A DNA stretch of 64,000 bases from NCBI GenBank assembly GCA_015487785.1, contig WFPC01000025.1:6654-70653 (forward strand), given 5' to 3'. Every line of letters starts with the position of its first letter. The stretch's first letter is position 1. The notes beneath the pieces are model-generated. The model made no database searches. It had not been told where the DNA came from and saw nothing but the letters and a program-made list of their open reading frames with translations. This document shows positions 36,694 through 60,398 of this stretch, piece after piece. This DNA is from Gammaproteobacteria bacterium. GTDB lineage: Bacteria > Pseudomonadota > Gammaproteobacteria > S012-40. The position numbers and the translations under genes were made by a program.

Positions 36694-38857
<2,164 letters not shown>

Positions 38858-38861
<4 letters not shown>

Positions 38862-39610: not shown

Positions 39611-39651
39611 GGGCGCACGGTCATGGCTGATAACGACAGAGGAAGCCAGTA

Positions 39652-40800
39652 ATGCGTTATTGCACCCGTTGCGTAATGCCGGAAACCAAGCCAGACCTGT
39701 ATCTGGATGAAGAAGGTGTCTGCAATGCCTGCCGCAGCTACGAGAACCGCAAGCAGGTGGACTGGGATGCCCGGCGCCAGGAATTACTCGATCTGGTGGA
39801 GCGCTACCGAAACACCTCCGGTTCCAACTGGGACTGCATCGTGCCGGTCAGTGGTGGCAAGGACAGCACCTTCCAAGTGGTGCGCATGCTGCAACTGGGG
39901 CTCAATCCCCTGTGTGTCACCGCCACCACTTGTGATCTCACCGAAATCGGTCGCAAGAATATCGAAAACCTCAAGAACCTCGGGGTGGATTACATCGAGT
40001 TCTCCGCCAACCCGGTCATCCGGCGCAAGCTCAACCGTATTGGCCTGACCCAGGTGGGCGACATCTCCTGGCCGGAGCATGTGGCCATCTTCACCGTGCC
40101 GGTGCGTGCGGCGGTACAGTATCAAGTACCACTGATCATCTGGGGCGAGAACTCACAGAACGAATACGGCGGACCGGCCGCGGCCAGTGAGAACAATATA
40201 CTCGATCGCCAGTGGCTGGAGGAGTTTGGTGGTCTGCTGGGCCTGCGGGTGAGTGACCTGGTGGGCCTGGAGGGTATCGAAAAACGCCACCTGATTCCCT
40301 ATCGTTATCCCAGTGATGAAGAATTACGCCGGGTTGGGGTTACCGGATTGTTTCTGGGTTACTACCTGCCCTGGGACGGCCTGTCCAATGCCCTGCTGGC
40401 CCAGGCCCACGGTTTCACCACTTGGCACAAACCCACCGAGGGCTCCATGGTGAATTACGAAAACCTGGATAATTACCAGACCGCCATTCATGAATATTTC
40501 AAGTTTCTCAAGTTCGGCTTCGGGCGGGCCACCGATCATGCCTGCCTGCATATTCGCCGTGGCCGCATCACCCGAGAGGATGCCCTGGAAATCGTGCGCA
40601 AGCACGAGGGCAAGTTCCCCTGGAGTTATCTTGGCAAGCCGCTGGAGGAAATTCTCGCGCCGCTGGAAATCAGCCTGGACGAGTTCATAAAGATCTGTGA
40701 CCGCTTCACCAACAAGCGGCTTTTCAAGACAGATGCCAATGGCAGGCTGATAAAGGACAAGGACGGCAATCTCATCAAACGCTATTACGACAACCCATGA
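39652..40800 (+). CDS. N-acetyl sugar amidotransferase (PseA/WbuX/LmbE-unrelated PP-loop family)
   Basis: CTRC and CNAC zinc motif, PP-loop SGGKDS, KFGFGRA, IRRGRITREDAL. Confidence 0.85.
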   Translation: MRYCTRCVMPETKPDLYLDEEGVCNACRSYENRKQVDWDARRQELLDLVERYRNTSGSNWDCIVPVSGGKDSTFQVVRMLQLGLNPLCVTATTCDLTEIGRKNIENLKNLGVDYIEFSANPVIRRKLNRIGLTQVGDISWPEHVAIFTVPVRAAVQYQVPLIIWGENSQNEYGGPAAASENNILDRQWLEEFGGLLGLRVSDLVGLEGIEKRHLIPYRYPSDEELRRVGVTGLFLGYYLPWDGLSNALLAQAHGFTTWHKPTEGSMVNYENLDNYQTAIHEYFKFLKFGFGRATDHACLHIRRGRITREDALEIVRKHEGKFPWSYLGKPLEEILAPLEISLDEFIKICDRFTNKRLFKTDANGRLIKDKDGNLIKRYYDNP

Positions 40801-41408
40801 AGGTCGCGATTCTGGACTACGGCATGGGTAACCTGGGTTCGGTGACCCGGGCCCTGGAGGACTGTGGTGCCGAGGTGGTGTTGTGCACCGAGGGCGCTGC
40901 CCTGGAAGGTATCGGCAAGGTGGTGCTGCCCGGTGTGGGCGCCTTCGCCGATGGCATGGCGGCGCTACGTCAACGCGGGCTGGATCGTGCGCTGGGTGAG
41001 TATGTGGCAGCAGGCCGCGGTGAGTTGCTGGGTATCTGCCTGGGCATGCAACTGCTGGCCGACTGGGGTCTGGAAGGTGAACGCACTGCCGGTCTGGGTC
41101 TGATTGCGGGCGAGGTGATTCGTCTGCAGCCTGGCGCGGGGGAGCGTGTTCCCCATGTGGGCTGGAACTGTGTGCAGCGGTTGAGTGACGACCCGTTATG
41201 GCAGGGTATCGCCGAAGGGACGGATTTCTATTTCGTACACAGTTATCATTTTGCCGTGACACGGCAAAAACAGGCCATCGCTCGTACGCCTTATTGCGGA
41301 GAGGTGATATCCGCGGTGCGTTCCGGCAGGGTCTATGGGGTGCAGTTCCATCCGGAGAAAAGTTCCTTTCCGGGGCGACGCCTGTTGCAGAACTTTCTTT
41401 CTTTGTGA
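40797..41408 (+). CDS. HisH-like glutamine amidotransferase (glycan-associated)
   Basis: LPGVGAF, GICLGMQ, YFVHSY, QFHPEKS; coupled to the amidotransferase. Confidence 0.88.
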   Translation: MKVAILDYGMGNLGSVTRALEDCGAEVVLCTEGAALEGIGKVVLPGVGAFADGMAALRQRGLDRALGEYVAAGRGELLGICLGMQLLADWGLEGERTAGLGLIAGEVIRLQPGAGERVPHVGWNCVQRLSDDPLWQGIAEGTDFYFVHSYHFAVTRQKQAIARTPYCGEVISAVRSGRVYGVQFHPEKSSFPGRRLLQNFLSL

Positions 41409-41414
41409 GTCGTC

Positions 41415-42194
41415 ATGTTGAAGACACGCGTGATTCCCACCCTGTTATGGAAGGATTTCGGCCTGGTCAAGGGCAAGGGTTTCGACAGTTGGCGCCGGGT
41501 GGGTACGGTATTGCCGGCGATCAAGGTCTACAACACCCGTGATGTGGATGAACTGATTCTGCTCGATATCACCGCCACCGCTCAGGAGCGGGAGCCGGAT
41601 TATGAGGCCATTCGCGACTTCACTGCCGAATGCTCGGTGCCTCTCACGCTCGGTGGCGGGGTGAACGATCTGGAGGTGATTCGCAAGCTGCTCTACAGCG
41701 GGGCCGACAAGGTGGCCATCAACAGTGCAGCCTATGCACGTCCGCAGTTGATCACTGAGGCGGCGCAACGTTTTGGGAGCCAGTGCGTGGTGGTGAGCAT
41801 CGATGCCCGCCGCGATGCCCATGGCCGCTACCGTTGTTATCGCTGTTGCGGGCAGGAGGATACCGGGCGTGAATTGGTTGCGTGGGCAATGGAGGTGGAG
41901 AGCCTGGGAGCAGGGGAGATTCTGCTGACTTCCATCGAGCGTGATGGCAGCCTGCAAGGTTACGATGTGGGCATGATCCGGCAGGTCGCCCGGGCGGTGA
42001 ATATCCCAGTGATTGCTGCTGGTGGCGCGGGTGAGGCGTCCCATTTCCATCAGGCCCTGGTGCAGGGTGGGGCGAATGCGGTGGCCGCGGCCAGTGTGTT
42101 CCACTTCACCGAGTTGACCCCGGAAGAAGTCAAGCAATATCTGCGTGAACGGGGTATTGCTGTGCGTAATACTCTGCAGCGTGATGCCGCCTGA
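41415..42194 (+). CDS. HisF-like TIM-barrel protein (glycan-associated)
   Basis: [43 protein letters not shown]. Confidence 0.88.
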
Positions 42195-43668
42195 GATTGT
42201 TGTCCGGGCCGATGCTTCCCGCCACATGGGGTTGGGGCATGTGGCGCGTTGCCTGGCGCTGGCGCGCGCCTTGCGTCGGCGGGGTGCCACCGTAACGTTT
42301 CTGTGTCGTAGCCTGCCCGGTGATGCCGGTGAGCGCATAATCCGCGAAGGGTTTGCTCTGCAGCGGCTAGAGGTACCCATCGGCAACGAGAGCGAGGATG
42401 CCGCGGCCTGTCTGGCTTGGTTACAACAGCGGGTCGGGGTGCGCTGGTTGATCGTCGATCACTATGGGTTGGGCGCAGACTGGGAGAGTCGTCTGCGGCC
42501 CCATGTGGGTCAACTGCTGGCCATCGACGATCTGCCCGAGCGGCGGCATTGCTGTGATCTGCTGTTGGAGCCCAACCTGCCGGCCCGGTCACCCGGTCGT
42601 GACCACCGTGGCGCCAGGGAATGGCTTTCCGGGCCACGTTACGCCCTGTTGGATGCGGCCTTCGCCGCAGTGGGTGAAAAGCGCGGGAGACAGACCGCAC
42701 AGGCGTGCAGGCTGTTGGTGAGCTTCGGCGGAGCGGATCCCTCTGGTGATACGGAGAAGGTCCTGCGTGCTCTGGGCGCCATGGCGCGGAACTGGCGGGT
42801 CGAGGTGGTGATAGGGCCGGCCAATGGCCGTCGTCGGCAAATCGAGGCACTGGCCGCGCGATTACCCGATACGCGTTGTCATTACGACATCACACCGACA
42901 GAAATGGCGGCGGCCATGGCGCGGGCTGAGTTGGCCGTGGGCGCGGGTGGTGGCAGCGCCCTGGAACGCTGTGCCGCGGCCTTACCCGGCGTGGTCATTG
43001 CCCAGGCCGACAACCAGCGTGCGCCGGCGCGTCTATTGGCCGAGCATGGAGCCCAGCTCTACCTGGGAGAGTCGTCCGCGGTGGACGAAGAGCAGATCGC
43101 ACGTGCGTTGCTCGTGCTGGCGGAGAATGCCAGCCTGCGCCACAGCCTTGCCCGTCGCGGACGGGAATTGGTGGACGGCTTGGGTGCCGAGCGTCTGGCC
43201 AGGCACTTGTGTCGGCCGGATATCCTGTTGCGTCCGGCTCGCCAGGGTGATTGCGAGGCCGTTTGGTACTGGCGCAATGCACCGGAGGTGAGGCGTTATT
43301 CCGGCGATGGTGAGGTTATTGCCTGGCCGGTGCATCGTGCCTGGTTCGAGTCGGTGTTGGCCAATCCCTCGCGCCATCTGCTCATCGGTGAAAACGAGGG
43401 CAGACCGGTGGGTGTGTTGCGCTTTGATCTGGCACGGGACGAGGCCGAGGTGTCCATCTATTTGTGTCCGGACAAGCACGGTCAGGGCTATGGTGCGGCC
43501 TTGCTGGCCCAGGGACACCGGTGGTTGCGGGAGCACTGCCCGGGCTTGCGACGAGTGATCGCCGAGGTGCGCAGTGACAATACCGCCTCCCTGGCCCTGT
43601 TCCGTGCCCAGGGTTACCGGCAGTGGAAACAACAATGGGTCTATACGATGGAAGCCGATCTGTCATGA
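42184..43668 (+). CDS. pseG: PseG UDP-sugar hydrolase fused to a PseH-like GNAT N-acetyltransferase
   Basis: RADAS..GLGHVARC, VDHYGL, AIDD, LVSFGGADP, ADNQ; C-terminal GNAT domain (WRNAPEVR, VGVLRFD, GQGYG, NTASLALF). Confidence 0.88.
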   Translation: MPPEIVVRADASRHMGLGHVARCLALARALRRRGATVTFLCRSLPGDAGERIIREGFALQRLEVPIGNESEDAAACLAWLQQRVGVRWLIVDHYGLGADWESRLRPHVGQLLAIDDLPERRHCCDLLLEPNLPARSPGRDHRGAREWLSGPRYALLDAAFAAVGEKRGRQTAQACRLLVSFGGADPSGDTEKVLRALGAMARNWRVEVVIGPANGRRRQIEALAARLPDTRCHYDITPTEMAAAMARAELAVGAGGGSALERCAAALPGVVIAQADNQRAPARLLAEHGAQLYLGESSAVDEEQIARALLVLAENASLRHSLARRGRELVDGLGAERLARHLCRPDILLRPARQGDCEAVWYWRNAPEVRRYSGDGEVIAWPVHRAWFESVLANPSRHLLIGENEGRPVGVLRFDLARDEAEVSIYLCPDKHGQGYGAALLAQGHRWLREHCPGLRRVIAEVRSDNTASLALFRAQGYRQWKQQWVYTMEADLS

Positions 43669-44735
43669 ACAACGGTATCAGCCTGGGTGGCCACAAGGTG
43701 GGCGAGGGGCAGCCACCCTTCATCATCGCTGAAATGTCCGGCAATCACAATCAGTCGCTGGAGCGCGCGCTGGCCATCGTCGATGCCGCCGCCGAGGCCG
43801 GTGCCCATGCCTTGAAACTGCAGACCTATACCGCCGATACCATGACCCTGGACCTGGCACAGGGCGAATTCGTGATCGACGACGAAAACAGTCTGTGGCA
43901 CGGTGAAACCCTCTACCGGCTCTATCAGAAGGCGCATACGCCATGGGACTGGCACGAGCCCATTTTCCAGCGCTGTCGCGAACGCGGGCTGGTATGCATC
44001 AGCTCACCCTTCGATGCCACGGCGGTGGATTTTCTGCTCGAGAGTGGTGTGGACGCGCTCAAAATCGCCTCTTTCGAGAATACCGACCTGGCCCTGATTC
44101 GCAAGGCCGCCGCCAGCGGTCTGCCCGTTATCATCTCCACTGGACTGGCCAGCCTGGCGGAACTGGATATGGCGGTGCGCACCGCCCGCGAGGCCGGTTG
44201 TGAGCGGCCGGTCCTGCTGAAATGCACCAGCAGTTATCCGGCCACCCCGGCCGACGCCAATCTGGCCACCCTGGCACACATGCGTGAAGCTTTTGCCTGC
44301 CCGGTGGGCTTGTCAGATCATACCCCGGGTATCGGTGTGGCGGTGGCAGCCGCCGCTCTCGGTGCCTGCGTGATCGAGAAACATTTCACCCTTCGCCGCG
44401 CCGACGGTGGTGTGGATGCGGCATTTTCCCTGCAGCCGGAAGAACTGGCGGCGCTGGTGCGGGAAACGGCACGGGCCTGGCAGGCCATCGGTGAGCCACG
44501 CTATGGCGCCGGCGAGGCGGAGCGGGCCTCGCGCAAGTTTCGCCGCTCGCTGTATGTCGTCGAGGACATGCGGGCCGGTGAAATCCTGGGGCCGCACAAT
44601 CTGCGCGCCATCCGGCCCGGTTTTGGCTTGTCGCCACAATATTATGAAACCGTCCTGGGTATGGCGGTGACGCGCGATGTGACGCGCGGAACGGCTTTGA
44701 CCTGGGCGCTTCTGAAACCAGTACGAGGTGATTGA
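43665..44735 (+). CDS. pseI: Pseudaminic acid synthase PseI
   Basis: IIAEMSGNHN, KLQTY, KIASFE, GLSDHT, IEKHFTL, SAF domain RPGFGL. Confidence 0.94.
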   Translation: MNNGISLGGHKVGEGQPPFIIAEMSGNHNQSLERALAIVDAAAEAGAHALKLQTYTADTMTLDLAQGEFVIDDENSLWHGETLYRLYQKAHTPWDWHEPIFQRCRERGLVCISSPFDATAVDFLLESGVDALKIASFENTDLALIRKAAASGLPVIISTGLASLAELDMAVRTAREAGCERPVLLKCTSSYPATPADANLATLAHMREAFACPVGLSDHTPGIGVAVAAAALGACVIEKHFTLRRADGGVDAAFSLQPEELAALVRETARAWQAIGEPRYGAGEAERASRKFRRSLYVVEDMRAGEILGPHNLRAIRPGFGLSPQYYETVLGMAVTRDVTRGTALTWALLKPVRGD

Positions 44736-45430
44736 TGACGCAACAAAGCAAGACGGCTTTTAAGGACTGGGCAGACTATTATCGCCAGGCTAGCGCCAGT
44801 GGCGAGGCCCTGGCCTATCCCAGCGAAACCCTGGTGCGCCTGTTCAAGGGAAAGTATATCACCGGCATGCCGAGGGACTTTCACGGCCTGTCGGTACTCG
44901 ACGTGGGCTGTGGCGGCGCCAACAATGCCCTGATGATGGCGCGTCTGGGGTTGCGGGTTTTCGGTACCGAGGTAGATGAGAGTCTGTGCCGAGAGGCCCG
45001 GGACATTCTGGCATCGCAGGGTTTCGAGGCCGATTTCCGCGTTGGTACCAACACCCGGTTGCCCTTTGACGACGACCAGTTCGATTTCCTGGTCTCCTGG
45101 AATGTGCTGCACTATGAAAACACCGAGCCGGACATCGTGGCCGGTTTGCAGGAGTATGCCAGGGTTCTCAAGCCGGGTGGCCGTCTATTGCTGTCCACCA
45201 CCGGGCCCGACCATGCCATTCTGAAAAATGCCAGAACCCTGGGCGGGCATCGTTACCAGATCGGTCGCGAGGACGATTTCCGCAAGGGCGAAATCTATTT
45301 CTATTTCGACAGCCCGGCCTATATCCATTTCTATTTCGATCCGGTTTTTCACCAGGTGCAGGTGGGGAGAACCCACGATCGGTTGTTCAACGACACCCTG
45401 GATTGGTTCATCGTTACTGCCGTCAAGTGA
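44732..45430 (+). CDS. Class I SAM-dependent methyltransferase
   Basis: VLDVGCGGA, FDFLVSWNVLHY, RVLKPGG. Confidence 0.9.
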   Translation: MMTQQSKTAFKDWADYYRQASASGEALAYPSETLVRLFKGKYITGMPRDFHGLSVLDVGCGGANNALMMARLGLRVFGTEVDESLCREARDILASQGFEADFRVGTNTRLPFDDDQFDFLVSWNVLHYENTEPDIVAGLQEYARVLKPGGRLLLSTTGPDHAILKNARTLGGHRYQIGREDDFRKGEIYFYFDSPAYIHFYFDPVFHQVQVGRTHDRLFNDTLDWFIVTAVK

Positions 45431-46724
45431 GTTCACGGATCAGGCCCTTGGCCAGGCAGTCGCGCGCGGCCTGGTGAAGCTCGCCGATGTCCAGCCCCGA
45501 GCGCTCGGCGATGTCCAGCAGGTCGTGTTCGCCATCACTGTAGTTGAGCAACCACAACAGGGCCTCGATGCGACGTTCCACATGGGACTGGGTGCCCAGG
45601 GAAGGATAAAGCCCGCGTTTGCCCAGTTGGGGCTCGCCATGGGGTTGCAGGTTGAGATAGCGCCGGTTCATTTCCAGTACCCGACAGATTTCGGTGTAGG
45701 TCTTCACCGATTGCGCCATGGCCTTGAAGGAAACGATGGCCTTGTTGTCCAATGAGGTGTGGTATTCCGGATACTCGGCATAGGGCGTGCGCATCAGTGA
45801 GCCCACCGGAAGATTGAAACCGGGTGAGCAATACTGGCGCTCGTCGCTGCCGGTGGGCCTGAAGTCACGCAGGCGGTGGAAACCCGGGTGCCGCTTCCGC
45901 AACACATATTCGGTGGCTCGGTCGGCCAGACTGTTGCCGGCGCGGGAGCGCTGATAGGTGAAGGGTGCATCGTGGCCGTTGCAGGTGATCACGAAACCGG
46001 CGGCGAGATGCCGCTTGAGATGCTCGCCATGGCGGTGTAGATAACAGATGCTGCCGATAGTCTCCGGGGCGAGCACGAAGCGATAGGTGTAGTAGCGTTC
46101 CTCGAGGGTGGCGAGTTCCCGATAGAGAAAGGCACATACCAATGGACCCGACAACTCGTTGACTGCCAGCGAGGGATGACAGGTATAACTGCTGAGCAGG
46201 ATTTCCTGCCGCGAACGGCCGGGTAGTACAGCATCGGACAGGGTCAGGCTGCCGTCGATGTGATCAGTGTCGACAACCACTTGGTATTCGCCCTCGACTA
46301 ATTGCTCCCGTTGGCGGTGGCTGAGGCAGAAGCCCCAGTAAGGGGAATAATACGAAGTGACATAGGGGATGGCATCGGGCTTGTACGGCAGGCTGTGCAG
46401 GTGGCCCTGTAACTCGGCCAGGCTCAGGTTGCCGCGAAAGGCGACGGAATAGTTCACCAGGTGCAGGTTGTTATCACGGATGTCGAGGATGCGCCTGCCG
46501 CTTGGATCGATTACATAGGCTTCCCGTACCACCCATTCCTTGGGAACCCGCCAGTCCAGCACTTGGCTGCCCGAGGGAATCTCGTGACGCACCAGCGGCA
46601 GGATCTCGCCGAGAATGTCATGGGTCTGGCGCACGCCCTTGCCGGTGATGCTGCGCAGAATGGGCCACAGTCGGTCGAAATAATATTCCAGGCTGGCCGC
46701 CAGCCGGTTCAGGTCTTCAGCCAT
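45423..46724 (-). CDS. DUF4910/DUF2172 protein (M28 peptidase-like fold, C-terminal winged helix)
   Basis: RSITGKGVRQT, IPYVTSYY, YTCHPS, NELSG, GSDERQYCSPG, EYHTS, PQLGKRGLY. Confidence 0.85.
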   Translation of the reverse strand: MAEDLNRLAASLEYYFDRLWPILRSITGKGVRQTHDILGEILPLVRHEIPSGSQVLDWRVPKEWVVREAYVIDPSGRRILDIRDNNLHLVNYSVAFRGNLSLAELQGHLHSLPYKPDAIPYVTSYYSPYWGFCLSHRQREQLVEGEYQVVVDTDHIDGSLTLSDAVLPGRSRQEILLSSYTCHPSLAVNELSGPLVCAFLYRELATLEERYYTYRFVLAPETIGSICYLHRHGEHLKRHLAAGFVITCNGHDAPFTYQRSRAGNSLADRATEYVLRKRHPGFHRLRDFRPTGSDERQYCSPGFNLPVGSLMRTPYAEYPEYHTSLDNKAIVSFKAMAQSVKTYTEICRVLEMNRRYLNLQPHGEPQLGKRGLYPSLGTQSHVERRIEALLWLLNYSDGEHDLLDIAERSGLDIGELHQAARDCLAKGLIRELT

Positions 46725-48268
46725 GCTTCACACGCTTCGGTATTGTCGAATATTTTGTGGGCAATGACTTTCCGTTCAGGCAGGCAACGGGGAATAAGGT
46801 GCTTGGCGGAGAAGGGCCCGGGGTGGATCAACAGGACGAGCCCTTTCCGGGTGTGCCAGCCTTGTTGCAGGCGCTGGAACCAAGCCAGGGCCTGCAACAG
46901 TTGCCTGCTGTCCAGGGTCACCGAGATTACCCGTATTCCGCGATCTACGTCACCCATGCTCAGCACGCCCACCGGCAGGGCGCCAAAGCGTTGCCGGGTC
47001 TGGATGTTCACCCGGTAGCGCGGGGCCCGCAGGCGTCCGACGAGCGAGGCCGGCAGCGACAGGCCCCAGCGGTTTTGTTCCAGCAGGGTGGCGGGGATGA
47101 AACTCTGGGGCCGCTCCGGATCATAGACCAGGTGCTGGAGCAGTTCTTCCCGCGTGACTTCACCCTCGAAGCTGCGCCCGTGGCTGGGCACCAGGTGGGG
47201 CGAGCTGCGTTGGTCGATGATGAGCCGGCCGGCATCGTCTTGCAGACTGGCTGATTCCAGCCACCAGTATTCGGGCACCAGCAGCTCGCCTATCGCGGTG
47301 CCGGTGGGCAGACGCTGGATGTGAAGACTCTCGAACAAGCTTTTCAGGCTGCGCAGGGCGGCCTCCACGCCGGGCACCAAGCCCAGCAGGGGCCAGTTGT
47401 CCAGGCCACGCTGTAGCTCATCGATGCTGTCTGTGGCTACGGGCCGAATGCCATGCGGCTCGGTGTAGGGAGAGATTTGGGGTGCCTGTCGCTTTTTCCC
47501 GGCCAGAGTCAGCAGCCAGGGTTGCCGTGGCAGGGTATGGGCCAGCAGATCGAAGGTGTCGCGTGCGCGCAGGGCCACCACGGCGCCACGTCCCACGGGT
47601 ACGCTTCGGGCGATGCCTTGCTCGCGGGCCAGACGGTCGAAAGGCTCGAACTCCGCCAGGGTGAGTTCATTGCCCAGGTCCATCACATGAATTACATTGC
47701 GCCATTGGCGGGGTCTGCCCTGCTCGATCAGTGTGCCGCGAAAGGCCTTGTCATAGCGGTAGGGCACCTTCAGTCGGCGCTCGACATAGTGAATGAAGGT
47801 GGATCCGGCATCGAAATTCAGATTGCAGATAATGCCATCAGCGTTCAGGAAACGCTCGAAGAAACAGTTGTCACCAAAACTGTTTTGCGGGACGTCTCGG
47901 GTGAGTTCTCTGGCACGCCGGCCAATGGCGGCAACGGAGTAACTGGGGTCTAGCGAGCGCAGGGAGCAGGGGTCGCGACGCAGCATCTCGGTGAATATAC
48001 CGCAGGTCGAGGGGGTGTTCTGGGGGTCGTAGGTCTCGCCGCGGGGAAAGGAATAGGTGAAGGTGGGTAGTACCAGGGTACCTTCTTCGCCCAGCACATC
48101 GAAAAAGGCGCCGAGCAGGGTTTGATAAACGGTTTGTGCCTGCATGCCGCCTTCTGGCACGCCGAAGAAACCGATATTGCTGTGACAGAACACGGTGTCG
48201 CCGGCGCGCAGGCCCACCCGCTCCAGGGCCGCGGCCAGTTGTGCACGGGTATAGTCGGTCTGGGCCAT
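46709..48268 (-). CDS. AAC(3)-family acyltransferase fused to a degenerate DUF4910-like domain
   Basis: VFCHSNI, GTLVLPTFTY, TPSTCGIFTE, DPSYSVAAIG, FIHYVE, VPYRYDK; the C-half aligns by eye to the neighbouring DUF4910 protein. Confidence 0.8.
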   Translation of the reverse strand: MAQTDYTRAQLAAALERVGLRAGDTVFCHSNIGFFGVPEGGMQAQTVYQTLLGAFFDVLGEEGTLVLPTFTYSFPRGETYDPQNTPSTCGIFTEMLRRDPCSLRSLDPSYSVAAIGRRARELTRDVPQNSFGDNCFFERFLNADGIICNLNFDAGSTFIHYVERRLKVPYRYDKAFRGTLIEQGRPRQWRNVIHVMDLGNELTLAEFEPFDRLAREQGIARSVPVGRGAVVALRARDTFDLLAHTLPRQPWLLTLAGKKRQAPQISPYTEPHGIRPVATDSIDELQRGLDNWPLLGLVPGVEAALRSLKSLFESLHIQRLPTGTAIGELLVPEYWWLESASLQDDAGRLIIDQRSSPHLVPSHGRSFEGEVTREELLQHLVYDPERPQSFIPATLLEQNRWGLSLPASLVGRLRAPRYRVNIQTRQRFGALPVGVLSMGDVDRGIRVISVTLDSRQLLQALAWFQRLQQGWHTRKGLVLLIHPGPFSAKHLIPRCLPERKVIAHKIFDNTEACEAWLKT

Positions 48269-48270
48269 GG

Positions 48271-48531
48271 TTATGGGTGTGTTGCCCGGGTCTCGGCGAT
48301 GATCTGGCACAGGCCGCTGAGCGTGGTGAAACGGCGGTCCTGGAATTGCTCGGCAGTGAAACGAATGCCGAACCGGGCCTCGGTATCGGCAATCAGCTCG
48401 ATGATGTTGAAACTGTCGATCAGGCCGGCCTGGATGTAGTCGGCATCGAGCAGGGCAGCGATGTCTGTTGCCCTACGCCCCGATTTTTTGACGAACCAGT
48501 CTTGTAACCAGCTGAGGATGGCGTCGTTCAT
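48271..48531 (-). CDS. Acyl carrier protein
   Basis: 86 aa; GLIDSF phosphopantetheinylation motif, FGI, FTTLSGL. Confidence 0.88.
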   Translation of the reverse strand: MNDAILSWLQDWFVKKSGRRATDIAALLDADYIQAGLIDSFNIIELIADTEARFGIRFTAEQFQDRRFTTLSGLCQIIAETRATHP

Positions 48532-49199
48532 GAGATTGCCTCGTCTTCCAGGGCAAAGACCCGTGCGGGAGCGCCGTCACCGTCGAGGATCTTGAGCGGG
48601 GCCACCACCAGTTGCACCTGTTTTTGCCGCAGCGCGGCGAGGTTGCAGAGATATTCCACCAGCACCACGCCGTTGCCGAGAAGAATCTTGTGTATGGGCG
48701 AGTCAATGTCACAGCCCTTGCCGTTTTTCGGGTCGTCGGGCATGGGTGTGTCCATGGCCAGCAGGCGGCAACCCCGCTGCACCAGCCAGTTGGCAGCCTG
48801 TTCCGACAGGAAGGGATGGTCGGTGTAATAGCGCATGGTATCCAGTTGTCTGGACCAGTCGTAGCGCAGGATGATGCGTTCGGGGCGTTCCTCGCCCAGC
48901 TCGTCTTCTAGCTCGTCGATGCCTATCATCTGGAAATCCCTTGCCTGGGTGAAGTCGCAGACCCGGGCCGGGCCCACCAGTTGCTCCGGTGCAATGGCAT
49001 CGATGGAAGCCCCTTCGGGAATGAAGTGTCGTGGCGCGTCCACGTGGGTGCCGGTATGGGTGCCCAGCACCAGCTTGCGGGTTTCCCGGTCTTCTATGCC
49101 GAAACGACCCAGCTGGGTGATTTCCACGAAAGGATGCCAGGGTACGGGAAAGGTGGTCATGCCCTCCCGGATGGTCAGGGTGAGATCCACGATGCGCAT
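48528..49199 (-). CDS. Cyclase-family (kynurenine formamidase-like) metal hydrolase
   Basis: HTGTHVDAPRH (HxGTHxDxPxH), VEYLCNL, APLKI, GAPARV; GGAGA RBS. Confidence 0.88.
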   Translation of the reverse strand: MRIVDLTLTIREGMTTFPVPWHPFVEITQLGRFGIEDRETRKLVLGTHTGTHVDAPRHFIPEGASIDAIAPEQLVGPARVCDFTQARDFQMIGIDELEDELGEERPERIILRYDWSRQLDTMRYYTDHPFLSEQAANWLVQRGCRLLAMDTPMPDDPKNGKGCDIDSPIHKILLGNGVVLVEYLCNLAALRQKQVQLVVAPLKILDGDGAPARVFALEDEAIS

Positions 49200-49259
49200 G
49201 TTGTGTTCTCCATCGTTCAATCGTAAAAAATAGCCGGGCCGGTTGTCTATCTCGCATCA

Positions 49260-49275
49260 TGCAGTTTGAATGCCC
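49260..49275 (-). promoter_or_regulatory. Internal sigma54 promoter candidate for cyclase-ACP-AAC(3)-DUF4910
   Basis: Minus strand GGGCATTCAAACTGCA (GG-N10-GC) in the 88-bp spacer. Confidence 0.55.
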
Positions 49276-49287
49276 GGGCGGAAAATT

Positions 49288-50076
49288 TCATTTTTCCGGT
49301 TGCAGAAGCTCGCAAATGGCGCCACCGGGTGTGCGCAACAGACCAATGCGTAGGTGTTTGTGGTTCACCTCCAGCGCGAAGGGAGCACTCAGCCAGCGGG
49401 CACCATTCGAGTCGGCCCGCTGCAGGTCGGCCTCGAGGTCGTTGCTGAACATGGCAAGGCAAGTGAAGCCCGCGCTGTCCAATGGATATTCGGGCCATGT
49501 GTTCCCGTGGAGCAGCAGTAGCTGGCAACACCATTGGGTCAGTGGGGAAATCAGTTCCAGCCATGCCCAGTTTTTTTCCTGCTGGCGTACTCGCCAGCCC
49601 AGGCCATGGCGCCAGAAGACGCATTCCTGCTGGACATCGCCGGTGTAGAGCATGACCAGGGTGGGTGCGTGTTCGTCTGTCTGCCAGAGCGGGACGGGGC
49701 TGTCTTGCCAGAATACCGGTCGGGCGTGCCCGTGACCGATGACCTTCAGGGCTTGTGCCACAGCCTGTTCGTGTTTTGCCACCTGGCGAGGCGTGGCCAT
49801 GCCCGCCGTGCTAGGTAACAGGGGCTGATAGGGCGCCTGGCAGGTGGTGTCCGGCGGACCGTGCGCTGTGAGTTCCAGGGCCAGGCCCGCGCCGGGTGGC
49901 GCCAGCCAGGCGATGTCGTGGTGTTCGCGATAGCACGACAACAGAATGCGTTTCTGGTTGTGGTTGGGCAGATCGGTTTCGCGAAAGCACAACCGCCAGC
50001 CCTGTTTTTCCATGTTTTCACTGGTGGGGCTCAGCGAGGCCACGCTGAGAGCCAGGTGGTCAGTGCCGAGAATCAT
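49288..50076 (-). CDS. VOC/glyoxalase-like protein
   Basis: N-terminal DHLALSVASL and C-terminal RTPGGAICELL resemble VOC beta-alpha-beta-beta-beta ends; otherwise divergent. Confidence 0.5.
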   Translation of the reverse strand: MILGTDHLALSVASLSPTSENMEKQGWRLCFRETDLPNHNQKRILLSCYREHHDIAWLAPPGAGLALELTAHGPPDTTCQAPYQPLLPSTAGMATPRQVAKHEQAVAQALKVIGHGHARPVFWQDSPVPLWQTDEHAPTLVMLYTGDVQQECVFWRHGLGWRVRQQEKNWAWLELISPLTQWCCQLLLLHGNTWPEYPLDSAGFTCLAMFSNDLEADLQRADSNGARWLSAPFALEVNHKHLRIGLLRTPGGAICELLQPEK

Positions 50077-51581
50077 GGCGTGGCGGCCCCGGCAGTGCCC
50101 AGGCAGTCCTGGCGCAACAGGTGTTTCTGAATTTTTCCGGTGACGCTGCGGGGAAAATCCCGGCGCTGGATGAAACGGGTGGGACGGGCGTGAGGTGGCA
50201 GTTCACGCCGACAGTGTGCCAGCAGCTCGGCATAAAGGCTTTGCCAGTCATGATCCGCCCTGGCGATGACCAGGGCTACTACTTCTTCACCGTGGAAGTC
50301 GTGGGGTAGGCCGATCACGGCAGCGTCTTCCACGCCCTCGAGTTGCAACAGGCAAGCTTCTACCGCGGCAGGGCTCACGTTGTGACCACCGTGAATGATC
50401 AGATCCTTCTTGCGCCCGGTGATGCTGAGGCAGCCTGTTTCATCCAGTTTGGCCAGGTCGCCGGTATCCATCCAACCGTCGGTCAGGGGTGATATTAGCT
50501 CACCCCGGTCGGGATCCAGGTAGCCGGCCAGGGCGTGGGGTGTATTGACCCACAGGACCTTTTGTTGTCCGCGTAACTGTATTTTTATCCCTGGCAACGG
50601 CGAACCGACCGAGCCTGCGTCACAATGATGTCCGGGACGTTGACCGGCCACCAGCAGGATTTCGCTCATGCCATAGCTCTGGTAGGTCTTGAGACCAAAT
50701 TCTTCCTCGAAGCGCATCCGCACTGCGGCAGGCAGGGGCGCGGTGCCCACGCAGACATCCAGGGGGTTGGCGCGGGTCCAGCGGACCACCCCGGGATCCC
50801 GCTGCAGGCGTGACAGCAGGGCCAGCATGGTGGGGCTGAGCCAGACAGCATTGGCTTGTTGGCTCATCACCGGTTGCCAGAAGGACAACGCGCTGCGCGC
50901 ATCGAAGCGAGGTGCCAGTACCACGCAGCCGCCGGCCATGAAGGGGACCAATATGGTGTTGAGGAATCCAGCCATGTAGCTCATGGGCAGAACGTGTAGC
51001 AGGCGCAGATCTTCATTCCAGCCCATGTGGTGGGCGAAGGTTGCGGCATTGTCCAGCATGCGCCAGGCGAGATGGCATACGGCCTTGGGTCGACTGGTGG
51101 TGCCGGAGGTGAAGAAAATACCGATGATGTGTTCATCACCGGCTTGCCAGGGAGCCGGTGGCAGATGCGCGGCCTTTTGTATCAAGCCTTTTTCTCCCAG
51201 TTGCCATAGCTCCATAGCCCTGATGTCGAGGTTGTCATTTTGTTCGCGGGTGACGATCCGTTTGGCCTGGCTCAACTGCAGTAGGAAGGCCACCTCATGG
51301 GCCGGCAGCTCCGGGTTGAGGGGGATTACGGTGATGCCCCCATGCAGACATCCCAGATAGAGCAGCACGAGGTCGAGACTGTTGGGTAACATGACGGCCA
51401 GACGATCACCAGGCCCCAGGCCCTGCTGGGAGAGCAGGCTGGCCACGCGTGCCGCCTGTTCGCCTAGTTCGGCATAGCTGAAGGTCCGCGGCTCTCCCGG
51501 TGAGGAAAGTGTATCGATCAGGGCGGGCCGGAGGTTGTTGGTTTGGAAACGTCCGTGGAATTGCTCAAGACGGGTGTTCAT
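50073..51581 (-). CDS. Class I adenylate-forming enzyme (acyl-CoA/acyl-ACP ligase)
   Basis: FTSGTTSRPK, SYGMSE, TGDL, GRKKDLII, NVSPAAVE, SVTGKIQK. Confidence 0.92.
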   Translation of the reverse strand: MNTRLEQFHGRFQTNNLRPALIDTLSSPGEPRTFSYAELGEQAARVASLLSQQGLGPGDRLAVMLPNSLDLVLLYLGCLHGGITVIPLNPELPAHEVAFLLQLSQAKRIVTREQNDNLDIRAMELWQLGEKGLIQKAAHLPPAPWQAGDEHIIGIFFTSGTTSRPKAVCHLAWRMLDNAATFAHHMGWNEDLRLLHVLPMSYMAGFLNTILVPFMAGGCVVLAPRFDARSALSFWQPVMSQQANAVWLSPTMLALLSRLQRDPGVVRWTRANPLDVCVGTAPLPAAVRMRFEEEFGLKTYQSYGMSEILLVAGQRPGHHCDAGSVGSPLPGIKIQLRGQQKVLWVNTPHALAGYLDPDRGELISPLTDGWMDTGDLAKLDETGCLSITGRKKDLIIHGGHNVSPAAVEACLLQLEGVEDAAVIGLPHDFHGEEVVALVIARADHDWQSLYAELLAHCRRELPPHARPTRFIQRRDFPRSVTGKIQKHLLRQDCLGTAGAATP

Positions 51582-52674
51582 GGGTCTTCTGTTTCAGCAG
51601 GCTGAAGCGGTATTGTTCGTCGCCGTGATACTGATCGAGGCCGAAGCGGGTGGTGGTTAGGTCTTGCATGCGCTTTGTCTCGGCCAGCCTGCGTGCTTCC
51701 TCTTCCACCATTTCGGGGGCGGCCTCGACCTTGTCGCGTCGGGTGACCGCCATGATGAGTTCGCGTGGATCGACCTGGTAACGACTGGAATATTCGCGAA
51801 TGATACCCATGTAGCTGCTGTGAAACTGGGCATGGCCGGAAATGGTGTCGATGGAACTGTGTCCACCCCTTGTGATGAGGGGGCGGATATATTCCTCACC
51901 GGCATCCATCAGGCCTAGAAGCTCATAGCTCAGTTGTGGGTACAGGCGATTCATAATGCATGCCAGGCGCTCGGTTGCGGTATTGCCGCCACTACGGCCA
52001 AAGCCTTGAAGGGATGCATCGACTACCATGGCGCCCAGCTCCATGGCCTTTAGAGAGTTGGCCATGGCCAAGCCCAGGTTGTCGTGGCCATGGAAGCCGA
52101 TGGGTATGTCCGAGCATTCACGGATAGCGCTCACATAGCGCTCGATATCCGCAGGAGTCATGCCACCCGCCGAATCCACGATGTAGATCAGGTCGGCCCC
52201 AAAATCGACAGATTTCTTCACCTGCTTGGCGAAAGCCCGCGGTGGAGAGGCATAGGATTTCATGTAGTTGGCACATACCATCATGCCGTGCTGCTTGGCT
52301 TTTTCGATGAAGGGGCGGGAGTCGTCCACGTTGTCCACGTTGGTGCCTATGCGAATGAAATCCATGCCGTAGCCGGCTGCCAGTTCCACGTGATGGAGCT
52401 TGGCAATGCCAGGAATACAGAACATTCCCCAGCCGGCCCGATCCAGTTCGTCACTAATGGCGCGCATGTAGTCCTCGTCACTGGCGGCAGCCTGGCCGAA
52501 ACCCGCCTCCGTGGCACCGAGACCCACGCCGTGGCCGATTTCTATCAGGCTGATGCGGGCATTTTCCAACGCCCTGGCAATGGTACGGGTGTCGTTGGCG
52601 GTGAACTGGAAATTGATGGCATAGCTACCATCACGCAGGGTGCAGTCGAGAATGTGTGGTGCCGGTTCCCCCAT
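51565..52674 (-). CDS. DRE-TIM aldolase, 4-hydroxy-2-oxovalerate aldolase (DmpG)-like
   Basis: DCTLRDG, EIGHGVGLG, YIVDSAG, GFHGHDNLGLAMANS, GRSGGN; DmpG-like C-terminal tail. Confidence 0.82.
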   Translation of the reverse strand: MGEPAPHILDCTLRDGSYAINFQFTANDTRTIARALENARISLIEIGHGVGLGATEAGFGQAAASDEDYMRAISDELDRAGWGMFCIPGIAKLHHVELAAGYGMDFIRIGTNVDNVDDSRPFIEKAKQHGMMVCANYMKSYASPPRAFAKQVKKSVDFGADLIYIVDSAGGMTPADIERYVSAIRECSDIPIGFHGHDNLGLAMANSLKAMELGAMVVDASLQGFGRSGGNTATERLACIMNRLYPQLSYELLGLMDAGEEYIRPLITRGGHSSIDTISGHAQFHSSYMGIIREYSSRYQVDPRELIMAVTRRDKVEAAPEMVEEEARRLAETKRMQDLTTTRFGLDQYHGDEQYRFSLLKQKTHEHPS

Positions 52675-52725: not shown

Positions 52726-54357
52726 TCATGCATGGTTTAGCCGTTGCTCCCGGTCGTGGCGTTGCAGTTGATCGAAATTGAGCATGTGATCGTAGTCGTT
52801 TTCCAGTTGGATCTTGAAATTGTGGTATAGGGGGTCATCCTGGTGCCTGTTGTTCAGTACGGCTTCGGCGGCATCATGCCAGATCTCGGCTTCTTCACGG
52901 TGTGCCCAGAATACGTCGGGCATTTCCGGAATATAGATGCTGTCGACCCGGCTGAGGACCTGGTAGATATAGGTGAAAACATGGGCCCGGTCAATGGCGT
53001 CGGCGTCGGGTCGAGGCAGGTTCTGGATGTTTTGCAGCATGGTGCGATATTCGTCGATACTCTTGGGCTCCAGGGTGAAGCCAAAGTCGGTGAACAGGCT
53101 CTTGCCCGCGCAGATGGCGGGAATGCCCTTGCTGGGGAACTCCAGCGCGGCCGAGCCGGTGACGGTAATGACCGCGGTGGCAATGTGGAACAGACTGGCG
53201 GTATTCATGTCGGTGGGGGAGAGGGCGATGTGAGGGTATTTCTCGATATACGCCCGGCTGAGATTTTCCGCCGAATGATCGGTTTTGTAATGCTTGTTGT
53301 CGGGATGGGGTTTGATCAGCCAGTTGACCTGGGGGATGTCCTTGATGATCTCCAGGGTTTCCTGCAGCCAGATATAGTAGTCGTCGTAGATCATCCAGTC
53401 GAAGCTGTGCGGGGCATCGGCCAAGATGTGTGACATGACGCCCACCACGGGTTTGCCGGGATCGAAGCCGGTGGCCTGATCCAGTTCCTCCCGGCGGTAG
53501 ATCTTTTTGTGATCGCCATAGGCCTCCACGGCATCCCATTTCTTGTTGCGCAAGGGCATGGACATGCGCTGGTCGAGATAATTCCGCGCCTCGCGAATGG
53601 CCAGGTCGTGATAGTTGTCGTAGATGTAGGCGAACTCCTCCGGTGAAAACTTGAATTCGTGATTGCGGATCTGTTCCAGCGAGGTGTACTTGCGAATGGT
53701 AAAGGGACCCGCGGCGAATTTGCGTCCAAACACGGTGCCACCGCTTTTTAGCAGGCTTCGAGCCAGGGTGCCGAAATTAGAATAGATGGTATGGCCCTGG
53801 ACCGACATCACGGCCTGATTCTGCTTGATCATGTTCTGAAACAGGATGACATCGCGCACTGCCTGTAACAGGTGATTGAGCACCACGTTGTCGATTTTCT
53901 CTATGGTGCCATTGGTGGTGCTGCGCATGTAACTGTCGTAGATGAGATCGCCGATGAGGATGCCGCCGAAATGGTAGTTGAGCAAGGTCTTGCGCTGTTG
54001 TTCGATGGTCTGACCGCCGAAGATCTGGTTGGCATCCAGCTTGAGATTCACGGGCAGGGGAGTGTCGTAGTAGAGAAAGCCATCGAAGCAAAAGGAATTG
54101 GCCACGGCCACCTCGGTGAAAGAAGACTTGGAACGCACCACTCCGATGACGCGATAGCCATAGTGTTCCTGGAGGTACTTGGCAATGAGGCAGTTGCCAA
54201 TGAGATAGCCGGCGTGTCCCACCATGAGGTCCACCAGAATGGCCTGTGGTTGACGCGCTGTCGCGGGCGCGACCTGGCTCCAGTAACGCTGGTTGACTTC
54301 CAGGTAGCGGTTGAATTCGGCAAGCCTCTTCTGTGCGATGTCACTGTCATTGCTCAT
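52726..54357 (-). CDS. Capsule-synthesis (KpsS/KpsC-like) putative glycosyltransferase
   Basis: WLIKPHP motif, TVTGSAALE, YIWLQETL; GGAG RBS. Family assigned from motifs only. Confidence 0.6.
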   Translation of the reverse strand: MSNDSDIAQKRLAEFNRYLEVNQRYWSQVAPATARQPQAILVDLMVGHAGYLIGNCLIAKYLQEHYGYRVIGVVRSKSSFTEVAVANSFCFDGFLYYDTPLPVNLKLDANQIFGGQTIEQQRKTLLNYHFGGILIGDLIYDSYMRSTTNGTIEKIDNVVLNHLLQAVRDVILFQNMIKQNQAVMSVQGHTIYSNFGTLARSLLKSGGTVFGRKFAAGPFTIRKYTSLEQIRNHEFKFSPEEFAYIYDNYHDLAIREARNYLDQRMSMPLRNKKWDAVEAYGDHKKIYRREELDQATGFDPGKPVVGVMSHILADAPHSFDWMIYDDYYIWLQETLEIIKDIPQVNWLIKPHPDNKHYKTDHSAENLSRAYIEKYPHIALSPTDMNTASLFHIATAVITVTGSAALEFPSKGIPAICAGKSLFTDFGFTLEPKSIDEYRTMLQNIQNLPRPDADAIDRAHVFTYIYQVLSRVDSIYIPEMPDVFWAHREEAEIWHDAAEAVLNNRHQDDPLYHNFKIQLENDYDHMLNFDQLQRHDREQRLNHA

Positions 54358-54396
54358 GGCATACTCCAGGGTGATGACGGATGATGTGGGCAATTA

Positions 54397-54412
54397 CGCA
54401 AAATCCAAGCCA
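54397..54412 (-). promoter_or_regulatory. Sigma54 promoter for the minus-strand tailoring operon
   Basis: Minus strand TGGCTTGGATTTTGCG (GG-N10-GC), about 40 bp before the ATG at 54357. Confidence 0.75.
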
Positions 54413-54423
54413 GAAACCGTATC

Positions 54424-54439
54424 CGGTGCGGTTATTGCC
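54424..54439 (+). promoter_or_regulatory. Sigma54 promoter candidate for the first GT41 gene
   Basis: CGGTGCGGTTATTGCC (GG-N10-GC), back to back with the minus-strand motif. Confidence 0.55.
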
Positions 54440-54482
54440 TGTAGCTTGGTGGGAACGATCACCGAACGATCACCGGGAGTGC

Positions 54483-60339: not shown

Positions 60340-60382
60340 GTTTTCACTGGATCCTTGCATCATGAGATTGTGGTTATTTGTA

Positions 60383-60398
60383 CGCAAGCAATATGCCG
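60383..60398 (-). promoter_or_regulatory. Sigma54 promoter for the GT41-sulfotransferase gene
   Basis: Minus strand CGGCATATTGCTTGCG (GG-N10-GC). Confidence 0.72.

Follow-up and report, generated by a model that had tools for sequence, protein, structure and literature searches.

A widespread gene cassette predicted to replace an N-acetyl group of pseudaminic acid, found beside flagellin genes of a hydrothermal-vent bacterium

The stretch of DNA that we analysed (64,000 nucleotides of contig WFPC01000025.1, here called the window) carries at positions 45423-52674 a minus-strand operon that is probably one copy of a widespread, portable cassette. We propose that this cassette swaps an N-acetyl group of pseudaminic acid (Pse), most likely the one at N5, for an acyl group that the cassette itself makes and delivers on an acyl carrier protein (ACP), and we put the probability of this reading at roughly 0.6. 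The reading draws on gene content, domains, catalytic residues, conserved gene order, fused genes and the link with pse genes, from which we infer all steps of the mechanism.

The sialic-acid-like sugars of flagella, capsules and S-layers bear a variety of N-acyl groups, which influence how phages, antibodies and lectins recognise them, and we know of no biochemistry for the delivery of non-acetyl groups to the N5 position. The cassette spans organisms from marine vibrios to methanogens and offers eight defined proteins, including candidates for a deacetylase and for an ACP-dependent transferase, and what looks like a self-contained supply of acid. If its function were solved in a single cultured carrier, hundreds of loci could be annotated, DUF4910 would gain a function, and enzymes for modified pseudaminic acids would become available. 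Pseudoalteromonas phenolica S3663, Labrenzia sp. OB1 and Methylocystis sp. B8 are cultured, non-pathogenic organisms in which we found the cassette.

Gene content of the operon and its surroundings

The host is an uncultured hydrothermal-vent bacterium represented by a MAG, and the operon adjoins flagellin and pseudaminic acid genes. The surroundings comprise flgG-L, the pse genes, two TPR-GT41 proteins and two flagellins. The features to which we refer are as follows.

36709..44735, plus strand: pseB, pseC, pseF, a WbuX-type amidotransferase gene, a hisH/hisF-like pair, a pseG-pseH fusion and pseI (context)
44732..45430, plus strand: class I SAM methyltransferase, 232 aa, with its gene coupled to pseI through an overlap of 4 nt
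45423..46724, minus strand: DUF4910/DUF2172/HTH_47 protein with an M28-like fold, 433 aa (PF16254, E 3.5e-91; PF09940; PF16221)
46709..47488, minus strand: degenerate DUF2172/DUF4910-like C-terminal half of the AAC(3) fusion (PF09940, E 6e-11)
47489..48268, minus strand: AAC(3)-fold N-acyltransferase domain, N-terminal half of the 519-aa fusion at 46709-48268 (PF02522, E 1.3e-33)
48271..48531, minus strand: ACP, 86 aa (PF00550, 24.9 bits against a cut-off of 20.8)
48528..49199, minus strand: cyclase-family metal-dependent hydrolase, 223 aa (PF04199, E 9e-31)
49288..50076, minus strand: two-domain, glyoxalase-I-like VOC protein, 262 aa (Pfam matches sub-threshold)
50073..51581, minus strand: adenylate-forming AMP-ligase, 502 aa (PF00501 and PF13193; 17-nt overlap with the aldolase gene)
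51565..52674, minus strand: DmpG-like class II pyruvate aldolase (HMGL), 369 aa (PF00682 and DmpG_comm)
52726..54357, minus strand: KpsS/Capsule_synth-like protein, 543 aa (weak PF05159 match; gene calls in L002 and L008)
54398..54412, minus strand: sigma-54-like -24/-12 motif TGGCTTGGATTTTGC, about 40 nt 5' of the operon's first start codon

A first-pass annotation of the window had described one ACP-centred acyl-tailoring module within a flagellin and pseudaminic acid island, and our results support this description. Domain searches recovered all seven gene types that it had named, on the minus strand and where it had placed them within 45423-52674, and the genes are indeed contiguous and mostly overlapping (overlaps of 16, 4, 4 and 17 nt; gaps of 2 nt and 88 nt). 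Its remark that FkbH and FabH are absent also holds, as neither occurs among the large ORFs of the 26-64 kb region. However, its gene list contained no methyltransferase, and the SAM methyltransferase usual for the cassette lies just outside 45423-52674, at 44732-45430 on the plus strand, where it is an orthologue (52-62% identity) of one placed inside the cassette in many other loci. The AAC(3) protein is fused to a degenerate DUF2172/DUF4910 copy. The KpsS-like gene belongs to the same operon and stands at its head, and its product is a candidate sugar transferase that would lie outside the acyl chemistry. The pse-region genes are predicted to supply CMP-Pse and an acetamidino group.

Conservation of the cassette

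The first-pass annotation had taken the acid-making genes for an "unusual precursor branch", but they are not peculiar to this locus and belong instead to a conserved cassette with hundreds of relatives in bacterial phyla and archaea. The aldolase subfamily alone has 496 relatives in species-representative genomes. Across the 80 best loci, which come from many bacterial phyla and from methanogens, the order aldolase-ligase-(VOC)-cyclase-ACP-(methyltransferase)-AAC(3)-DUF4910 recurs, and the cassette usually adjoins pse/neuB genes. This arrangement, with its order repeated in dozens of unrelated genomes, is far beyond chance. Among 58 independent loci the ligase is present in 52, the cyclase in 50, and AAC3 and DUF4910 in 38 each. 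When both flanks are available (43 loci), AAC3 and DUF4910 occur together in 23 and NeuB in 24, while no neuB lies within 10 kb in the other 19 (about 44%), so that the acceptor may differ in some organisms.

Finer features of the order are also shared. The ligase gene lies directly downstream of the aldolase gene in 33 of 43 independent loci, and one protein, P0300, is a natural aldolase-ligase fusion of 827 aa. The ACP gene usually stands directly before AAC3, and in some related loci an AcpS-type PPTase gene (PF01648) precedes the aldolase gene. Fusions of AAC3 to DUF4910, with both domains apparently intact, occur in L017, L021, L040, L066 and L086. A literature search found no paper describing the aldolase-ligase-cyclase arm together with pseudaminic acid, and this arm is absent from both the Shewanella sfm cluster and a 2026 survey of Clostridium.

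Predicted enzymes and proposed mechanism

The aldolase has the fold, communication domain and pyruvate-metal site of DmpG/BphI, with about 35% identity, and R14, D15, H195 and H197 of that site are invariant. It matches PRK08195 at 296 bits, above the cut-off of 229, but falls below the TIGR03217 equivalog cut-off (265 versus 286 bits). Whereas DmpG/BphI has His21, Tyr291 and a DmpF partner, alignment to 1NVM, 4LRS and 8IH7 reveals a swapped catalytic pair, with Tyr in place of DmpG His21 and His in place of Tyr291, and no DmpF acylating aldehyde dehydrogenase is present here. The swap is invariant in 28 members of the family, whose invariant residues include T12 L13 R14 D15 G16 S17 Y18, F85 C86 I87 P88 G89, H195, H197 and H285. 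The aldehyde pocket, formed by F-C-I, seems to be hydrophobic and so better suited to a smaller, non-polar aldehyde. The role of the enzyme is probably biosynthetic, not catabolic as in the meta-cleavage pathways of DmpG/BphI, and it would join pyruvate to a small and probably non-polar aldehyde to yield a 4-hydroxy-2-oxo acid.

The translationally coupled ligase, which among proteins of solved structure is closest to malonyl-CoA synthetase, FadD13 and oxalate-CoA ligase, is presumed to load the acid onto the ACP; it would adenylate the 4-hydroxy-2-oxo acid and transfer it to the holo-ACP. The carrier protein gives weak DltC/AmcB-like matches and has a phosphopantetheine site of the DS type, at the GLIDS serine in GLIDSFN. 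The acid built upon it is most likely small and pyruvate-derived. It had been suggested earlier that aldolase, VOC protein and cyclase together make this acid. The aldolase and cyclase do form a constant triad with the ligase, but the VOC protein is optional: tblastn places it in about 40% of independent loci, and blastp clustering in 43 of 84 loci.

The cyclase carries the metal motif HxGTHxDxPxH (as HTGTHVDAPRH), and its relatives in the PDB are the hydrolases 8HMO and 1R61, isatin hydrolase and kynurenine formamidase. At 73 bits it falls far below the TIGR03035 cut-off of 223 and thus is not an arylformamidase orthologue. We expect it to work in the acid-making arm, where it might open the alpha-keto-gamma-lactone that 4-hydroxy-2-oxo acids readily form. 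A role as sugar N-deacetylase is less likely, as the cyclase accompanies the aldolase and ligase where tblastn shows no AAC(3) or DUF4910 gene (L010, L022 and L044).

The VOC protein corresponds to the 262-aa frame; a 125-aa ORF at 49247-49624 was rejected as its coding sequence. An exhaustive search returned 552 representative clusters. The AlphaFold model (pLDDT 96) has GLOD4 and maize glyoxalase I as top Foldseek matches (E 4e-12, TM about 0.6), and H7, E68 and E256 are invariant, in DH, ELT and EL(I/L) contexts that match glyoxalase I ligands. Three of the four His/Glu/His/Glu ligands of glyoxalase I are thus accounted for, with no His at the third position. We rejected an HPPD/HMS-like dioxygenase making 3-hydroxybutyrate as the main reading, since the conserved candidate ligands resemble those of glyoxalase I, and since strict anaerobes, methanogens among them, possess the protein, an occurrence that speaks against a dioxygenase. 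When present, it might instead catalyse an oxygen-independent proton transfer, for example an epimerisation or isomerisation of the thioester. The SAM methyltransferase would methylate the acyl group and, together with the VOC protein and cyclase, tailor or proofread the acid. The cassette core has no reductase, and a 2-hydroxy or 2-methoxy product would therefore depend on an enzyme encoded elsewhere.

The best PDB matches of the AAC(3)-fold domain are AAC(3)-IVa and then FrbF (3SMA), an AAC(3)-fold enzyme that acts on a CMP-linked amine. The protein scores far below the cut-offs of all NCBIfam AAC(3) resistance models (best 79 bits against a cut-off of 270); judged by sequence, it has the fold of a resistance enzyme but is not one. 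The degenerate half fused to it is 26% identical to residues 20-162 of the neighbouring DUF4910 protein and, compared column by column, lacks the conserved CHP, ETIG, SDERQ and R312 positions. The intact DUF4910 protein aligns with 3K9T at E 4e-113 and about 50% identity, and its H183, N189-E190 and H322 fall on the single-zinc ligands H189, D195 and H324 of that structure (PMC4000134). The N189-E190 pair is an 'NNE' variant seen in 22 of 40 DUF4910 homologues. In 3K9T the two invariant non-ligand active-site residues of M28 peptidases are replaced, and its authors doubted a hydrolase role (PMC4000134). We regard the DUF4910 protein as a candidate N-deacetylase or transacylase.

The most economical reading is that suggested by the first-pass annotation, namely deacetylation followed by re-acylation, an idea also published for Cj1295 (PMC3068675). 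The intact PseG-PseH (GNAT) gene suggests that the normal di-N-acetyl sugar is still made, and because PseG-PseH is retained here and in many other cassette loci, acylation would have to come after normal Pse synthesis. DUF4910, through its single-zinc site, would then take off the N-acetyl group already on (CMP-)Pse, probably the one at N5. The amine set free in this way would receive the ACP-bound acyl group by the action of the AAC(3)-fold enzyme. Finally, the neighbouring TPR-GT41 (FlmG-like) enzymes could place the modified CMP-sugar on the two flagellins.

Known systems and alternative readings

By its gene content the cassette is a variant of the Campylobacter Cj1295-type system, in which the DUF4910-family gene Cj1295 and the AAC(3)-like Cj1296/7 are neighboured by ACP, methyltransferase and FkbH/FabH-like genes. 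The match that had been noted earlier is sound for one half, consisting of DUF4910, AAC(3) and ACP (and the methyltransferase), and in both organisms a DUF4910 protein and an AAC(3)-fold protein lie beside pse and flagellin genes. The acid supply is unlike that of C. jejuni, with a Tyr/His-swapped aldolase, an AMP-ligase, a cyclase and a VOC protein in place of FkbH/FabH. C. jejuni uses Maf proteins for flagellin glycosylation, whereas the flagellin transferases at this locus are of the TPR-GT41 (FlmG-like) type, and the dead DUF2172 domain of the AAC(3) protein is a further difference. The flagellin glycan product of C. jejuni NCTC 11168 is Pse7Ac5(2,3-di-O-methylglyceroyl). Genetics showed that Cj1295 is required for Pse with the 5-N-(2,3-di-O-methylglyceroyl) group, and it was proposed to remove the 5-acetamido group ahead of re-acylation with an O-methylated hydroxy acid (PMC3068675). 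In neither flagellin variant of that strain was the AAC(3)-like Cj1296/7 in frame, not even in the one that makes the modified sugar (PMC3068675, Table 1), and hence the AAC(3) enzyme may not be the transferase.

This last observation favours a reading in which DUF4910 is itself the transacylase, in the manner of the single-zinc, M28-fold glutaminyl cyclases, with the AAC(3)-fold protein auxiliary or acting on another amine. Transacylation was suggested by the authors of 3K9T (PMC4000134), and the dead DUF4910-like domain of our AAC(3) fusion could simply dock AAC(3) to DUF4910. However, AAC3 occurs together with DUF4910, and repeatedly in fusions in which both domains look intact. AAC3 also usually follows the ACP gene immediately, and we consider this reading improbable. 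It also seems quite unlikely that the acceptor is something other than N5, such as the N7 amine, a UDP-4-amino sugar intermediate, a KpsS-extended amino sugar or a flagellin side chain. The loci without a nearby neuB, the cassettes that sit within ABC-transporter polysaccharide loci (L012, L020 and L023) and the KpsS-like gene heading our operon would fit such an acceptor. Nevertheless, the sugar pathways that do adjoin the cassette are almost without exception pse/neuB, the retained PseH implies normal acetylation of N7, and the C. jejuni precedent has its acyl group at N5 (PMC3068675).

Although the aldolase matches PRK08195 above cut-off, and its homologues are named '4-hydroxy-2-oxovalerate aldolase' in source annotations, we hold it highly improbable that the aldolase arm represents ordinary meta-cleavage DmpFG catabolism or an unrelated small-molecule pathway merely located beside glycosylation genes. 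There is neither a DmpF dehydrogenase nor a hydratase, the aldolase has the swapped catalytic His/Tyr pair and misses the TIGR03217 cut-off, and synteny with ACP, AAC3 and DUF4910 is kept across phyla.

Other systems resemble parts of the cassette. In the RfbK-O tetronate branch of Vibrio cholerae O1, much as proposed here, a dedicated ACP and AMP-ligase make a 3-deoxy hydroxy acid for the N-acylation of an amino sugar, although that branch employs an alcohol dehydrogenase and a LuxC/E-like reductase, acts on perosamine, and is not known to include an aldolase, cyclase, VOC protein or DUF4910. The neighbourhood of Clostridium acetobutylicum CA_C2195 (the protein of 3K9T) contains neuB-like, ACP, AAC(3)-like and 'glyoxylase' genes, and the paper on it assigned no function (PMC4000134). 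That locus pairs AAC(3) with an HAD/FkbH-type domain, whereas our operon has the aldolase arm instead. The first-pass annotation had expected the substituent to be undescribed, but one acyl group with an aldol-type skeleton is already described. The flagellin-linked, Pse-type nonulosonic acid of Treponema denticola flagella carries 2-methoxy-4,5,6-trihydroxyhexanoyl as its N-acyl group (PMC13439194), a skeleton that would correspond to the aldol product of pyruvate and glyceraldehyde after keto reduction and O-methylation. However, the cassette encodes no reductase, and its aldolase pocket looks hydrophobic and would favour a smaller aldehyde. When the ligase of L031, a locus from Spirochaetia, was used as query, none of the proteins retrieved bore a Treponema name.

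It is a tentative and rather unlikely extension that the cassette serves, in both domains, as the general route by which nonulosonic acids receive N5-acyl groups of the 3-deoxy-aldonoyl type, optionally 2-O-methylated, including the group of T. denticola. Were this so, four protein families would each gain a first function: a biosynthetic class II pyruvate aldolase with the Tyr/His swap, a glyoxalase-I-like enzyme whose substrates are acyl-ACP thioesters, an AAC(3)-fold transferase that depends on ACP, and DUF4910 as an N5-deacetylase.

The sequencing runs that contain the locus are only DNA runs, from vent metagenomes. Scans for sigma-70 promoters and terminators scored the real sequence no better than shuffles. 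The sigma-54-like motif upstream of the KpsS-like gene is weak, with two mismatches to the consensus, and such motifs were found 125 times against about 94 expected.

The island and its acyl operon

The window carries a flagellar glycosylation island at 29.6-64 kb, in which a plus-strand pse block is followed by a minus-strand acyl operon and then by two TPR-GT41 proteins and two flagellins. All seven gene types that the first-pass annotation had claimed for 45423-52674 are present.

Features of the island (coordinates, strand, description)
within the island, +, flgG-H-I-J-K-L
within the island, +, pseB, pseC, pseF
within the island, +, WbuX-type amidotransferase and hisH/hisF-like pair
within the island, +, pseG-pseH fusion, pseI, SAM methyltransferase
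36650-36664, +, sigma-54-like TGGC-N7-TTGC motif, intergenic, just upstream of pseB
45423-46724, -, DUF4910/DUF2172/HTH_47 protein
46709-48268, -, AAC(3)-fold protein
48271-48531, -, ACP
48528-49199, -, PF04199 cyclase-family hydrolase
49288-50076, -, two-domain VOC protein
50073-51581, -, AMP-ligase
51565-52674, -, HMGL/DmpG-like aldolase
52726-54357, -, KpsS-like/Capsule_synth-like protein, 543 aa, first gene of the acyl operon
54398-54412, -, weak sigma-54-like TGGC-N7-TTGC motif, intergenic, ~40 nt upstream of the KpsS-like start codon

The seven genes overlap by 4-17 nt or are separated by a 2-nt gap, with a single exception of 88 nt. The two sigma-54-like motifs hint at membership of both the pseB and the acyl operon in the flagellar regulon, although two-mismatch matches are common across the window. 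The bacterium is uncultured and known from hydrothermal-vent metagenomes; a single NCBI MAG record and several vent metagenome assemblies and runs contain the locus.

The PseG (GT28-C-like)-PseH (GNAT) fusion (507 aa, 42145-43668, +) recurs in 21 related loci. The two TPR-GT41 (FlmG-like) proteins, between the acyl operon and the two flagellin genes, are convergent (54381-56384, +; 56392-60387, -); in the related locus L008, the orthologue of the 1331-aa protein additionally matches Sulfotransfer_3. Between argG and flgG lies a 588-aa protein with APH-type phosphotransferase and AAA_33/zeta-toxin-like kinase domains (27931-29697, -).

Distribution of the cassette

The precursor branch had been described as unusual, but it is not a local oddity; the same cassette is conserved across bacterial groups and methanogens. 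Aldolase homologues at 55-62% identity number in the thousands, with 496 relatives in a one-genome-per-species collection, and we compared the best 80 of these 496 loci by tblastn with the window proteins and by clustering of all locus ORFs. Among these 80, the order aldolase-ligase-(VOC)-cyclase-ACP-(methyltransferase)-AAC(3)-DUF4910 recurs in Alpha-, Gamma- and Deltaproteobacteria, Verrucomicrobiota, Lentisphaerae, Elusimicrobia, Bacteroidota, Planctomycetes, Dependentiae, Deferribacterales, Methanoregula and Methanosarcinales. The chemistry can be tested directly in cultured organisms that have the cassette, among them Vibrio coralliilyticus ATCC BAA-450, Enterovibrio paralichthyis, Pseudoalteromonas phenolica, Methylocystis sp. 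B8, Bradyrhizobium sp. U531, Labrenzia sp. OB1 and Roseibium sp. AS2.

Across 58 independent loci whose downstream sequence was long enough, we found the ligase in 52, the cyclase in 50, AAC(3) and DUF4910 in 38 each, the ACP in 35, a methyltransferase orthologue in 24 and the VOC gene in 23. Where both flanks were available (43 loci), the ligase gene immediately follows that of the aldolase in 33, AAC(3) and DUF4910 occur together in 23, and 24 have neuB no more than 10 kb away. Gene fusions add weight to the unity of the cassette: an 827-aa protein (P0300) joins aldolase to ligase, and AAC(3) is fused to a full DUF4910 in five other loci.

Some loci carry additional genes, such as an AcpS-type phosphopantetheinyl transferase preceding the aldolase (L058, L065, L076, L082), extra methyltransferases or B12-radical-SAM enzymes. 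In about 8 loci (among them L017, L024, L038, L052 and L076) the aldolase or ligase gene has a class I/II aminotransferase gene as its neighbor, which suggests that some versions make a gamma-hydroxy amino acid. In seven loci (L021, L024, L049, L064, L071, L075, L093), three genes absent from the window stand between pseC and pseG/H of the pse operon beside the cassette; they encode an aldo/keto reductase, an additional cytidylyltransferase and a class III aminotransferase. Four ABC-transporter polysaccharide loci carrying the cassette (L012, L020, L023, L026) also encode a ~590-aa protein with an HP(R/D) motif (ORF cluster c23; no Pfam hit), distinct from the KpsS-like protein.

Papers from 2010 and 2014 already describe the association of DUF4910, AAC(3) and ACP with nonulosonic-acid loci; we did not find the aldolase-ligase-cyclase-VOC arm in the searchable literature. 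No flagellin or GT41 genes lie near the cassette in the 80 best loci; the flagellar FlmG-type setting is peculiar to one lineage, comprising the window and the related loci L001 and L008. The window is thus a further copy of the cassette, in a new setting of this flagellar kind and with its AAC(3) fused to an apparently dead domain.

Proposed acyl exchange on pseudaminic acid

The PseG-PseH gene is retained in the island, as in many cassette loci, and thus Pse5Ac7Ac is presumably made in the normal way. Because the N5-acetyl of Pse comes from UDP-GlcNAc, it can be changed only after removal. A precedent exists in Campylobacter jejuni NCTC 11168, where Cj1295, of the same family as the window DUF4910, is required for Pse bearing a 5-N-(2,3-di-O-methylglyceroyl) group and was proposed by its discoverers to cleave the 5-acetamido group (PMC3068675). 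Given this need and this precedent, we propose that the module couples an acid-making arm (aldolase, ligase, ACP, methyltransferase, cyclase and VOC) to an acyl-swap pair (DUF4910 and AAC(3)), and that the neighboring TPR-GT41 proteins, which resemble FlmG-type flagellin glycosyltransferases (bioRxiv 10.1101/2022.03.25.485807), would place the acylated product on flagellins. Alternatively, DUF4910 itself may transfer the acyl group, since Cj1296/7 is out of frame in both C. jejuni flagellin variants, including the one that makes the modified sugar (PMC3068675).

The window DUF4910 is about 50% identical to CA_C2195 (3K9T), which binds one zinc via His189, Asp195 and His324 (PMC4000134). The window protein has His183 and His322 and belongs to the NNE motif variant (here VNE), seen in 22 of 40 homologues, whose acidic zinc ligand seems to be shifted by one residue. 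Its putative partner in the acyl swap is a 519-aa fusion. The AAC(3) domain falls far below all resistance-enzyme cut-offs and has FrbF as its second-best solved relative. The C-terminal half (46709-47488) matches PF09940 and is 26% identical to residues 20-162 of the adjacent DUF4910 protein; lacking the CHP, ETIG and SDERQ motifs and the Arg312 that the family conserves, this DUF2172/DUF4910-like half is, judged by its sequence, a dead copy. L008 and a Magnetococcales locus (L047) share this architecture, each also encoding an intact DUF4910 on its own.

The acid and the enzymes that would make it

The aldolase is about 35% identical to DmpG (1NVM) and keeps the pyruvate-metal site (Arg14, Asp15, His195, His197), whereas the catalytic His21 of DmpG is Tyr and Tyr291 is His, a swap invariant in 28 family members. 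It scores below the TIGR03217 equivalog cut-off and no DmpF partner was found, which all but rules out a meta-cleavage enzyme. In BphI and DmpG an L-L-L pocket holds the alkyl group of the aldehyde; the corresponding F-C-I here would favor a small non-polar aldehyde. The nearest solved relatives of the ligase (malonyl-CoA synthetase, FadD13, oxalate-CoA ligase) would fit a substrate that is a small acid of the alpha-keto or dicarboxylic type.

The SAM methyltransferase (44732-45430, +) overlaps pseI by 4 nt. It belongs to the module despite its opposite strand, being 52-62% identical to the cassette-internal methyltransferase of many other loci, where the gene lies between those for ACP and AAC(3) or for VOC and cyclase. 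As a precedent for an acid with a suitable skeleton, the flagellar sugar of Treponema denticola carries a 2-methoxy-4,5,6-trihydroxyhexanoyl group (PMC13439194). By our reading, this group equals the aldol product of pyruvate and glyceraldehyde once its keto group is reduced and its 2-oxygen methylated; in C. jejuni, too, the acyl group is a 2-O-methylated hydroxy acid. However, the absence of a reductase from the cassette and the seemingly hydrophobic aldolase pocket count against simply equating the cassette's acid with the T. denticola group.

The cyclase accompanies aldolase and ligase even where tblastn detects no AAC(3) or DUF4910, and we therefore assign it to the acid-making arm. It carries an HxGTHxDxPxH metal motif and is similar to isatin hydrolase and kynurenine formamidase. 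As an alpha-keto lactam, isatin is isosteric with the alpha-keto-gamma-lactones that 4-hydroxy-2-oxo acids readily give; hence our best guess, a tentative one that we think more apt to fail than to hold, is that the cyclase opens or recycles such a lactone.

The VOC protein is an optional member of the cassette, and a word-indexed search returned only 3 matches, as against 552 representative clusters in an exhaustive HMMER search. Its AlphaFold model (pLDDT 96) resembles GLOD4 and two-domain glyoxalase I, with invariant His7, Glu68 and Glu256 in DH, ELT and EL(I/L) contexts, the motifs in which glyoxalase I has its metal ligands. We favor epimerization or isomerization of the thioester as its role. 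An oxygen-dependent dioxygenase was rejected because the protein occurs in methanogens and other strict anaerobes.
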